Assembly (NCBI RefSeq): GCF_024700885.2 | Contig: NZ_CP117016.1 | DNA: 64,000 bases | Direction: 5' to 3' (one strand) | Source of the DNA: Escherichia coli | GTDB lineage: Bacteria > Pseudomonadota > Gammaproteobacteria > Enterobacterales > Enterobacteriaceae | Shown: in pieces, positions 15,986-55,119 of the stretch | Numbering within the stretch: the stretch's first letter is position 1 | Layout of the letters: each line of letters starts with the position of its first letter | Program-made: the position numbers and the translations under genes | The notes under the pieces: generated by a model | The model's input: only the letters and a program-made list of their open reading frames with translations | Told to the model about the DNA's origin: nothing | The model's database searches: none

Positions 15986-17002
15986 TTACCTTACCGCCCC
16001 CGCTATCCACGCAGACAACTCCCGTAGCTCTTTTTCCTGTTCCGGGAAGTCAACCAACAGCGCTTCGCACTCCTGTTGCAGCATATCCGCGCGGTACAGG
16101 CAGCCTTGCAGTCGCCCGGCGAGGGCTTCCAGCGGCGCGGGGTTGAGGCTGTCGGTAAACACCTGGGCGCGGGTGATATGGCCTTTTTCAACGTCGAAAT
16201 GCAGTTCCACACCGCCCCAGGTAAAGCGTTCATCCAGCAGATGCGAGAATGCCGGAGCCTGACCGAAGTTCCATTCCCAGCTACTCTGGCGGGCAAAGGT
16301 TTCGGCGAAGTTTGGCAAGTCTGGCGTTTTGTCCGGGGAGATGATTTCTGCTTCCACGCGCTCGCCATAATGGGCGAAAAAGGCCTCGGTTATGGCCTCG
16401 CAAACCTGCTCATGGGTGATCCCCGGCAGCAGCTCGGTGAGGTTGGTCACTCGGGAACGTACCGACGTAATGCCTTTCGCCGCCAGTTTCTTTTTATCCG
16501 GATTGAGATAGTTTGCCAGGCGGCTAAGGTCGGCATTGAGCAGCAAGGTGCCGTGGTGGAAGCCGCGATCTTTGGTTTCGCGATAGGCCGAGCCTGAGAC
16601 TTTGCGGTCGCCTTCGGCGGTTTTCACCACCAGATCGTTACGTCCGGACGCTTCGGCGCTGACGCCGAGCGCGTTCAGCGCATTAAGCACAATCGACGTG
16701 GAGATAGTTTTATCGTACTCCGGCTTGCCAGCCATAAAGGTAAAGCAGGTATTACCGAGATCGTGGAACACCGCGCCGCCACCGCTACTGCGCCGCGCCA
16801 GGCGGACGTTATCTTCTTCCATCCGCCGGGTATTACACTCTTTCCACGGGTTCTGTGCGCGACCAATCACTACCGTGTCGGCATTGCGCCAGAGAAACAG
16901 AACGCGCTGCGTGGCGGGCATCTGGCGAAAAATACACTCCTCCACCGCCAGGTTAAACCACGGATCGTAAGAGTCAGAGATGAGCAGGCGTAATGTGGAC
17001 AT
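15986..17002 (-). CDS. lplA: Lipoate-protein ligase A
   Basis: 338-aa product [28 protein letters not shown]... Confidence 0.9.
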
Positions 17003-17029
17003 AACGATTTCCTTTCTTGTAGTAATGGG

Positions 17030-53059: not shown

Positions 53060-53147
53060 TCGCCCTATAAACGGGTAATTATACTGACACGGGCGAAGGG
53101 GTATTTCCTCTCCGCCCGTGCATTCATCTAGGGGCAATTTAAAAAAG

Positions 53148-54278
53148 ATGGCTAAGCAAGATTATTACGAGATTTTAGGCGTTTCCAAAACAGCGGAAGA
53201 GCGTGAAATCAAAAAGGCCTACAAACGCCTGGCCATGAAATACCACCCGGACCGTAACCAGGGTGACAAAGAGGCCGAGGCGAAATTTAAAGAGATCAAG
53301 GAAGCTTATGAAGTTCTGACCGACTCGCAAAAACGTGCGGCATACGATCAGTATGGTCATGCTGCGTTTGAGCAAGGTGGCATGGGCGGCGGCGGTTTTG
53401 GCGGCGGCGCAGACTTCAGCGATATTTTTGGTGACGTTTTCGGCGATATTTTTGGCGGCGGACGTGGTCGTCAACGTGCGGCGCGCGGTGCTGATTTACG
53501 CTATAACATGGAGCTCACCCTCGAAGAAGCTGTACGTGGCGTGACCAAAGAGATCCGCATTCCGACTCTGGAAGAGTGTGACGTTTGCCACGGTAGCGGT
53601 GCAAAACCAGGTACACAGCCGCAGACCTGTCCGACCTGTCATGGTTCTGGTCAGGTGCAGATGCGCCAGGGCTTCTTCGCTGTACAGCAGACCTGTCCAC
53701 ACTGTCAGGGCCGCGGTACGCTGATCAAAGATCCGTGCAACAAATGTCATGGTCATGGTCGTGTTGAGCGCAGCAAAACGCTGTCCGTTAAAATCCCGGC
53801 AGGAGTGGACACTGGAGACCGCATCCGTCTTGCGGGCGAAGGTGAAGCGGGCGAGCATGGCGCACCGGCAGGCGATCTGTACGTTCAGGTTCAGGTTAAA
53901 CAGCACCCGATTTTCGAGCGTGAAGGTAACAACCTGTATTGCGAAGTCCCGATCAACTTCGCTATGGCAGCGCTGGGTGGCGAAATCGAAGTACCGACCC
54001 TTGATGGTCGCGTCAAACTGAAAGTGCCTGGCGAAACCCAGACCGGTAAGCTGTTCCGTATGCGCGGTAAAGGCGTCAAGTCTGTCCGCGGTGGCGCACA
54101 GGGTGATTTGCTGTGCCGCGTTGTCGTCGAAACACCGGTAGGTCTGAACGAGAAGCAGAAACAGCTGCTGCAAGAGCTGCAGGAAAGCTTCGGTGGCCCA
54201 ACCGGCGAGCACAACAGCCCGCGTTCAAAGAGCTTCTTTGATGGTGTGAAGAAGTTTTTCGACGACCTGACTCGCTAA
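53148..54278 (+). CDS. dnaJ: Co-chaperone DnaJ (Hsp40)
   Basis: 376-aa product [37 protein letters not shown]; CxxCxGxG zinc-finger repeats. Confidence 0.95.
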
Positions 54279-54287
54279 CCTCCCCAA

Positions 54288-54310
54288 AAGCCTGCCCGTG
54301 GGCAGGCTTG
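54288..54310. terminator. Hairpin between dnaJ and hokC (likely bidirectional terminator)
   Basis: Inverted repeat aagcctgccc gtg gggcaggctt. Confidence 0.5.
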
Positions 54311-54381
54311 GGTAAAAATAGGGTGCGTTGAAGATATGCGAGCACCTGTAAAGTGGCGGGGATCACTCCCCGCCGTTGCTC

Positions 54382-54534
54382 TTACTCGGATTCGTAAGCC
54401 GTGAAAACAGCAACCTCCGTCTGGCCAGTTCGGATGTGAACCTCACAGAGGTCTTTTCTCGTTACCAGCGCCGCCACTACGGCGGTGATACAGATGACGA
54501 TCAGGGCGACAATCATCGCCTTATGCTGCTTCAT
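54382..54534 (-). CDS. hokC: Type I toxin HokC (Gef)
   Basis: 50-aa product MKQHKAMIVALIVICITAVVAALVTRKDLCEVHIRTGQTEVAVFTAYESE. Confidence 0.85.
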   Translation of the reverse strand: MKQHKAMIVALIVICITAVVAALVTRKDLCEVHIRTGQTEVAVFTAYESE

Positions 54535-54591
54535 TGCTCTCTTCTCCTTGACCTTACGGTCAGTAAGAGGCACTCTACATGTGTTCAGCAT
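54382..54591 (-). CDS. mokC: Overlapping modulator reading frame MokC
   Basis: 69-aa in-frame upstream extension MLNTCRVPLTDRKVKEKRA + HokC. Confidence 0.6.
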   Translation of the reverse strand: MLNTCRVPLTDRKVKEKRAMKQHKAMIVALIVICITAVVAALVTRKDLCEVHIRTGQTEVAVFTAYESE

Positions 54592-54650
54592 ATAGGGGGC
54601 CTCGGGTTGATGGTAAAATATCACTCGGGGCTTTTCTCTATCTGCCGTTC
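54592..54650 (+). ncRNA. sokC: Expected position of SokC antisense RNA (approximate)
   Basis: In hok/sok loci the antitoxin RNA is antisense to the mok leader; boundaries here are inferred, not read from promoter or terminator signals. Confidence 0.3.
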
Positions 54651-55119
54651 AGCTAATGCCTGAGACAGACAGCCTCAAGCACCCGCCGCTATTATATCGC
54701 TCTCTTTAACCCATTCTGTTTTATCGATTCTAATCCTGAAGACGCCTCGCATTTTAATGGCGTAATTTTTTAATGATTTAATTATTTAACTTTAATTTAT
54801 CTCTTTATCGCAATTATTGACGACAAGCTGGATTATTTTTGAAATATTGGCCTAACAAACATTGCCGACTGACAACAAATTAATTATTACTTTTCCTAAT
54901 TAATCCCTCAGAAATCCTCACCTTAAGCTATGATTATCAGGGCTTAGGGTCACTCGTGAGCGCTTACAGCCGTCAAAAACTCATCTCATCGCTGATGGCA
55001 CAAATCCTTCAATGGTTCGTAAAAAACGAATTATTCCTACACTATAATCTGATTTTAACGATGATTCGTGCGGGGTAAGATAGTAAAAACGATCTATTCA
55101 CCTGAAAGAGAAATAAAAA

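Follow-up and report, generated by a model that had tools for sequence, protein, structure and literature searches.

An uninterrupted hokC/mokC/sokC locus in Escherichia coli, with predicted R1-like RNA control and probable silence as a killer under classical triggers

Does an Escherichia coli hokC locus that is free of insertion sequences retain a working toxin-antitoxin system, and would such a system kill? The question arises because K-12 MG1655 carries an IS186 copy (IS186A) between dnaJ and hokC, whereas the 64,000-nt stretch of E. coli DNA analysed here (the window) has none. The original prediction had drawn this contrast correctly and had gone on to suggest that the strain may carry a functional, killing-competent locus. 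Our analysis indicates that hokC/mokC/sokC in the window is very probably the ancestral, uninterrupted E. coli allele of a type I toxin-antitoxin locus, with an RNA-level control that we infer to be like that of plasmid R1, and that it is most likely silent under normal conditions. An IS-free chromosomal hokC locus is not in itself new, such a locus being already known and previously characterised. The by-products of the present work are modest, namely a precise map of the elements of the locus and the recognition that the 3' hairpin of the processed mRNA is an IS186 target. That a locus is inactive owing to IS186 does not mean that it is active where IS186 is missing, and the two statements are kept apart in what follows.

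Position and reading frames of the locus

The gene order around the locus is dnaK-dnaJ-hokC-nhaA-nhaR, with hokC on the minus strand, convergent to dnaJ, and no IS element. The flanking dnaJ coding sequence (53148..54278, plus strand; homologous K-12 annotation) has its stop at 54278, and 103 bp separate it from the hokC stop codon (54382-54384, minus strand), in good agreement with the distance of about 100 bp originally proposed. The Rfam model RF01794 matches 54684..54532 (minus strand) over its full length, with its 3' limit at the hokC AUG, at 119.5 bits (E 5.7e-28). This score, together with the toxin profile match given below and the occurrence of the locus in 5425 of 5426 complete E. 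coli genomes, places the locus far beyond chance. Although RF01794 is named "sok antitoxin (CssrC)", it matched the hok-sense strand up to the hok AUG in the window as in each of the 26 hits in other loci, so that the model describes the hok mRNA leader, in the structure of its processed form, and not the antisense Sok RNA. With the 5' end set at model position 1 (54684), the hokC mRNA is predicted to run to ~54283, a length of ~400 nt, both ends being placed by folding, by the K-12 annotation, and by the limit of the Rfam model. The span first given for the locus, 54290-54660, did contain it but cut off its 5' part, that is, the leader up to 54684 and the -10 box at 54696-54691. The complete set of hok-family cis elements is present in the window: the TATAAT box, tac, ucb, the mok Shine-Dalgarno sequence (SD) and AUG, dcb, the hok SD, the 3' hairpin, fbi, the terminator hairpin, and sokC. 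Elsewhere in the window, a known element, the tpke11 sRNA family (RF02031, 69.6 bits), matches the dnaK-dnaJ intergenic region at 53070-53147 (plus strand).

The hokC (gef) toxin ORF occupies 54382..54534 (minus strand), encodes 50 aa, and is nucleotide-identical to K-12 hokC. Its translation, MKQHKAMIVALIVICITAVVAALVTRKDLCEVHIRTGQTEVAVFTAYESE, is identical to K-12 Gef and matches the Pfam family HOK_GEF (PF01848) at 85.5 bits (E 1.8e-24), against a cut-off of 22 bits. A length of ~50 aa, the profile match, a hydrophobic N-terminal helix, and an L-C-E motif mark the product as a Hok/Gef toxin, and residues C15, T17, L29-C30-E31, and E40 agree, offset by one, with the conserved set of bioRxiv 10.1101/2025.08.07.668861. 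Among the NCBIfam models, those for the Hok subfamily and for HokA matched only below threshold. A Shine-Dalgarno sequence, AAGGAG, precedes the ORF at 54544..54549 (minus strand; mRNA nt 136-141), with an invariant CAAGG. In the same frame as hokC, mokC covers 54382..54591 (minus strand; 69 aa), with its SD, GAGG, at 54603-54600 and its AUG at 54591-54589, and both ORFs are thus full length, as had been predicted. The GAGG-N8-AUG arrangement spans 54603-54589, and mok reads across the hok start, the overlap expected of a mok gene. The mok SD and AUG were kept in 16 of 16 loci (the window, 14 genome loci, and an R1-like plasmid copy), while the frame of mok relative to hok was 0, 1, or 2 among them. 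Conservation of these initiation signals alongside a varying frame would fit a role for mok translation and not for the Mok peptide. In the B2-type strains EC5931 and 30348_2#316, a CAG-to-TAG change at hokC codon 3 (equivalent to 54528) is a natural point-mutation knock-out; it also cuts mokC short, and what remains is an ORF of 44 aa annotated as "Hok/Gef family protein". The window does not carry this change.

The Tyr47 codon of hokC lies in a UACG motif at 54393..54396 (minus strand; A at 54395), a site of the TadA A-to-I type. The motif stands in the context CGG-CUUACGAAU-CCG, which we take to resemble the anticodon arm of tRNA-Arg2; folding in silico gave no stable tRNA-Arg-like local hairpin around the UACG site (z 0.74 and -0.99). 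TadA A-to-I editing, with a change of Tyr to Cys, has been reported for K-12 hokC mRNA (PMC5630033, PMC12214031), at an editing level of 9% (PMC12214031). Toxicity of the Hok family is described as depending on a second cysteine, which in hokC is supplied only by TadA editing (PMC5630033, PMC12214031), and full HokC toxicity may need the Tyr47-to-Cys RNA edit.

Promoters, antisense RNA and predicted mRNA foldings

A perfect -10 box for hokC, TATAAT, is found at 54691..54696 (minus strand), 6 nt upstream of the predicted +1, and is conserved in 10 Escherichia alleles, MB165 excepted. On the opposite strand, the sokC antisense RNA gene (54583..54641, plus strand; ~59 nt) maps to K-12 b4413 (16952..17010) and differs from K-12 sokC by 1 nt. 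The RNA folds into a stem-loop preceded by a single-stranded 5' tail of 9 nt and followed by a U tail (z -4.95), and the 5' tail is complementary to the mokC start region. Using the 5' end of K-12 sokC and a family alignment of Sok promoters, we placed the sokC promoter at 54548..54576 (plus strand), with a -35 box TTGACC (54548-54553), a 17-bp spacer, and a -10 box CACTCT (54571-54576). By sequence, SokC is predicted to be a cis-antisense Sok RNA with its own promoter and with complementarity to the mok initiation region. SokC/mokC double-stranded RNA and a dependence on RNase III have been detected in K-12 (PMC7373196). Within the hokC clade (E. coli, E. albertii, and some Pseudocitrobacter), the Sok -10 box is CACTCT or CAGTCT, whereas TAnnCT is found in other hok loci and in the R1-type plasmid. 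This pattern suggests a weaker antitoxin promoter throughout the hokC clade, and the departure of CACTCT from the family form makes the strength of the SokC promoter uncertain. A simple consensus scan for promoters and terminators called none of those of the locus, returning only an unrelated promoter-like site on the plus strand and a weak intragenic hairpin; the assignments made here consequently rest on homology. A promoter-like CAGACA-18-TATTAT at 54666-54695 (plus strand) overlaps the hokC start and its -10 box and faces nhaA.

The elements that would govern mRNA folding all lie on the minus strand. The predicted 5' end, at Rfam model position 1, is formed by tac (GGGUGCUUGAGG; 54673..54684). 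The upstream complementary box, ucb (AAGCCCCG; 54626..54633), has a different predicted partner in each conformation: in the full-length RNA it would pair with the mok SD region, and in the truncated RNA with tac. The mok SD region of the truncated RNA would pair instead with the downstream complementary box, dcb (54567..54573). Beyond the ORF lies a proximal hairpin, GGCGGGGA-GUGA-UCCCCGCC (54355..54374), the predicted 3' end of a processed mRNA of ~330 nt, followed by a segment of the 3' UTR (54334..54354) whose partner, in the in silico fold of the full-length RNA, is the start region of mokC. The fold-back inhibition element, fbi (CUUCAACGCACCC; 54321..54333), would pair with the 5' end of the mRNA (tac), and a distal GC-rich hairpin (54288..54309) is the putative hokC transcription terminator. 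In the ORF-proximal hairpin, a stem of 54355-54362/54367-54374 encloses a TCAC loop; among the features of 3' processing, it is the protective hairpin that is seen at the locus. Both hairpins are predicted to be more stable than shuffled sequence (z -2.7 to -4.1), which bears out their existence as originally proposed; their identification as fold-back elements had to be given up, because fbi lies between them. Only on the minus strand does UUUUGGGG follow the distal hairpin, while the plus strand continues GGGUAAAAAU, and this one-sided U run points to a putative hokC terminator. The terminator scan missed this hairpin, the U run being only 4 U long. On the plus strand, the same hairpin may double as the terminator hairpin of dnaJ.

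In the minimum free energy fold of 54684..54283, nt 1-12 (tac) pair with nt 352-364 (fbi), and the ucb region pairs with the mok SD region. Once the RNA ends at nt 331, where the ORF-proximal hairpin has its 3' base, the predicted partner of tac becomes ucb (nt 52-58) and that of the mok SD becomes dcb (nt 112-118); the Rfam consensus structure is thereby reproduced. According to these models, the locus would encode both of the mutually exclusive hok foldings, one held by tac/fbi and the other by tac/ucb and SD/dcb; a two-state folding scheme has been described for R1 hok mRNA (PMC9841398). In the window alone, the tac/fbi duplex holds a G.U pair and a bulge and surpasses shuffled tac sequences by a modest margin only, 16 of 200 shuffles having done as well.

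For comparison, 24 hok loci were taken from one-genome-per-species contigs (Escherichia, Pseudocitrobacter, Kluyvera, Citrobacter, Photorhabdus, and others). RF01794 lay on the hok-sense strand in all 20 of the 20 loci that were scanned, and in nearly all 24 the best complement of the first 12-14 nt was located 45-66 nt past the stop codon. Compensatory changes in tac/fbi comprise GGGUGC/GCACCC versus GGGCGC/GCGCCC, as well as GAGG/CCUC, GAGA/UCUC, and GAAG/CUUC. In a 19-sequence alignment, 89% of tac/fbi cells were paired, compared with 35-55% when the partners were slid, and one tac/fbi pair is U-A in 12 sequences and C-G in 5. The truncated conformation behaved similarly, with 85% of cells paired compared with 41-49% when slid (19 sequences); pairing across the 19 sequences reached 98.5% for tac/ucb (helix 1), 91% for SD/dcb (helix 3), and 95% for the 3' hairpin. 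Photorhabdus thracensis DSM 15199 has six hok leader matches on one strand within ~5.4 kb, a tandem array of near-identical hok loci. A 275-bp contig of Acinetobacter idrijaensis, a non-enterobacterial assembly, holds a hok fragment 83% identical to HokC, which is probably contamination.

A model of the locus can be proposed in which every step is drawn from homology with plasmid R1 hok/sok. The promoter with the perfect -10 box would yield an mRNA of ~400 nt (54684 to ~54283), whose ends would pair through tac and fbi to give an inert form, with ucb sequestering the mok SD. Slow 3' trimming to the 54355-54374 hairpin would produce the ~330-nt species, in which tac would switch to ucb and the mok SD would pair with dcb. 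Translation of mokC could then drive translation in the hokC frame, unless SokC (54583-54641) intervened by pairing with the mokC start region and triggering cleavage. The product, HokC, would be a 50-aa inner-membrane toxin. Under normal conditions the locus would most likely be silent, as has been reported for the IS-free allele of ECOR24.

The IS186 target in K-12 and in the population

The K-12 MG1655 locus, hokC (gef)/mokC/sokC (sof) (b4412/b0018/b4413), resembles the window in its position between dnaJ and nhaA, its identical hokC/mokC ORF, and its identical promoters. Over sokC and the leader, the two are only 1 nt apart, at 54597 in the spacer between the mok SD and AUG, a position at which K-12 is the outlier among 11 Escherichia alleles. 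This is the sole difference in the mRNA core, and comparison with K-12 revealed none of the point mutations, in the mok/hok coupling or the sok promoter, that the original prediction had named as speaking against it. Unlike the window, K-12 has fbi and the terminator cut off from the rest of the mRNA and the ORF by IS186A, which in MG1655 sits in the loop of the 54355-54374 hairpin, between dnaJ and hokC. The bases duplicated on both sides of the K-12 element correspond to 54359..54370, a target that is empty here; the window is contiguous across it and free of the K-12-type IS186 inactivation. The target hairpin has the sequence form GGGG-N6-CCCC, and we take GGGG-N6/7-CCCC to be the IS186 consensus target, which was reportedly set out by SaiSree et al. 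in 2001. K-12 hokE/sokE, a different paralogue at a different chromosomal site, carries IS186B in the homologous post-stop hairpin (GCGGGGAGUAAUCC before the IS, compared with GCGGGGAGUGAUCC before the IS in hokC), unlike the IS-free hokC of the window. That IS186 targets the very hairpin in which the processed mRNA ends explains why hok loci are repeatedly struck.

The IS-free state, whose rarity the original prediction had implied, turned out to be common: the site is uninterrupted across the hairpin in 3814 of 5426 complete E. coli genomes (70%) and is likewise IS-free in E. albertii and in the GTDB representative genome of E. coli. IS-free hokC is the ancestral condition and that of most genomes, from which K-12 (and B) depart, and the strain studied here carries the common wild-type allele. 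In ~30% of complete genomes the site is split by IS186. Orientation-specific IS186 junctions were counted in 821 and 943 genomes, a sum that exceeds by ~150 the 1611 genomes without an uninterrupted site (5425 - 3814); the two-place split of these 1611 was derived from place totals, and only the empty and split counts are solid. A cross-match of hokE-IS186 junctions was considered as the source of the excess and was rejected, as it covers only 61%. At the identical site, IS186 is found in the opposite orientation in EC5931 and ECO-104 and in the K-12 orientation in Z1324SEC0014, where the insertion was followed by an IS1-mediated deletion of hokC. ECO-104 has a second insertion, IS150, in the hokC leader/sokC region (equivalent to 54605-54609). 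The DNA upstream of hokC also varies, with E. albertii having no nhaA within 3 kb and the B2-type E. coli EC5931 having ompK-like and sulfatase genes between hokC and the expected place of nhaA.

Alternative readings and comparison with known loci

In our view, the hokC locus is structurally complete, with RNA-level regulation like that of R1 hok/sok, but is probably silent as a killer under classical triggers. Alternatively, the native locus may be killing-competent once IS186 is absent, such that decay of SokC, upon rifampicin treatment or locus loss, would allow HokC to be made and the cell to die, as with R1. No regulatory element is damaged, and the toxin ORF does not differ from Gef; HokC belongs to the Hok peptides whose toxicity had been shown earlier, and it was the positive control of an overexpression assay (bioRxiv 10.1101/2025.08.07.668861); and one chromosomal copy of R1 hok kills when Sok is missing (PMC9841398), so that chromosomal dosage is not limiting. 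Recurrent IS186 insertion at the site may be read in the same sense, since hok loci have been noted as insertion hotspots for mobile genetic elements, proposed to be adaptive (bioRxiv 10.1101/527788). However, an IS-free hokC has been described in ECOR24, with a transcript of ~330 nt (Pedersen & Gerdes 1999, as cited in PMC3562002), and a 2026 preprint citing the same study (bioRxiv 10.1101/2025.08.07.668861) reports neither post-segregational killing nor rifampicin activation for it, a negative result that belongs to the ECOR24 allele, which is likened to the window by description and not by sequence. That preprint also describes chromosomal hok loci as inactive in tests of post-segregational killing. 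In addition, the intact locus is stably kept in 70% of genomes, and the Tyr47-to-Cys edit that full toxicity may need stands at the low level cited above for K-12. On balance, killing competence is unlikely, and killing by the native hokC locus is doubtful. Of the functional locus originally envisaged, a structurally intact, IS-free locus is upheld; its killing competence is not, given the negative report for ECOR24 cited in the preprint.

At the other extreme, hokC could be a functionless, decaying relic that in this lineage has so far been spared by IS elements and point mutations. The split of the site by IS186 in ~30% of complete genomes would agree with such decay, as would the additional loss of hokC through IS1 in one strain (Z1324SEC0014), the B2-type allele with TAG at hokC codon 3, and the reported inactivity of chromosomal hok loci in tests of post-segregational killing. 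A relic is nevertheless distinctly unlikely: hardly any complete genome lacks the locus, its mRNA core varies very little among phylogroups and in E. albertii and retains the paired elements, and the structure-preserving covariation across genera argues for purifying selection on the hok RNA. Very improbable, too, is the proposal that both hairpins merely constitute the terminator region of dnaJ (dnaKJ operon) and have nothing to do with hokC. The distal hairpin does start 10 nt past the dnaJ stop, with a plus-strand fold of -21 kcal/mol, but its U run is on the minus strand and not on the plus strand, fbi sits between the two hairpins, and the ORF-proximal hairpin is kept at the equivalent post-stop position in plasmid hok loci and in those of other genera, with no dnaJ nearby. 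A further possibility is that native hokC is conditionally active in IS-free strains and that the recurrent, site-specific IS186 insertions reflect selection to disarm it and not a mere target hotspot. This idea draws on the share of genomes with an insertion (~30%), the occurrence of both orientations, and the hit in the homologous hokE hairpin. The trigger might be, for example, a fall in SokC while TadA editing of Tyr47 rises, or heat-shock-induced read-through of the distal hairpin from dnaKJ, antisense across hokC; the distal hairpin is without a U tract on the plus strand. We regard conditional activity with selection for disarming as quite improbable.

A complete but ordinarily silent locus, the reading that we prefer, can be set beside two known systems. 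The R1-type hok/mok/sok locus, represented by the copy on pMTY1886_IncFII, is collinear with the window in tac, ucb, the mok SD/AUG, dcb, the hok SD, and a hok ORF ending AYES.., and also downstream in the hairpin, fbi, and a U-rich run, with a terminator-type hairpin in the flanking DNA beyond the alignment. The position of the antisense promoter is common to both, and 223 of 436 aligned columns are identical, whereas the Sok -10 box is TATCCT in the R1-type copy and CACTCT in the window. R1 hok/sok is a proven system of post-segregational killing, a functional type also represented on F and R483, and chromosomal hokC is reported not to be one (bioRxiv 10.1101/2025.08.07.668861). Like the window, hokC of ECOR24 is described as carrying no IS, and its ~330-nt transcript equals the processed species predicted here, nt 1-331.
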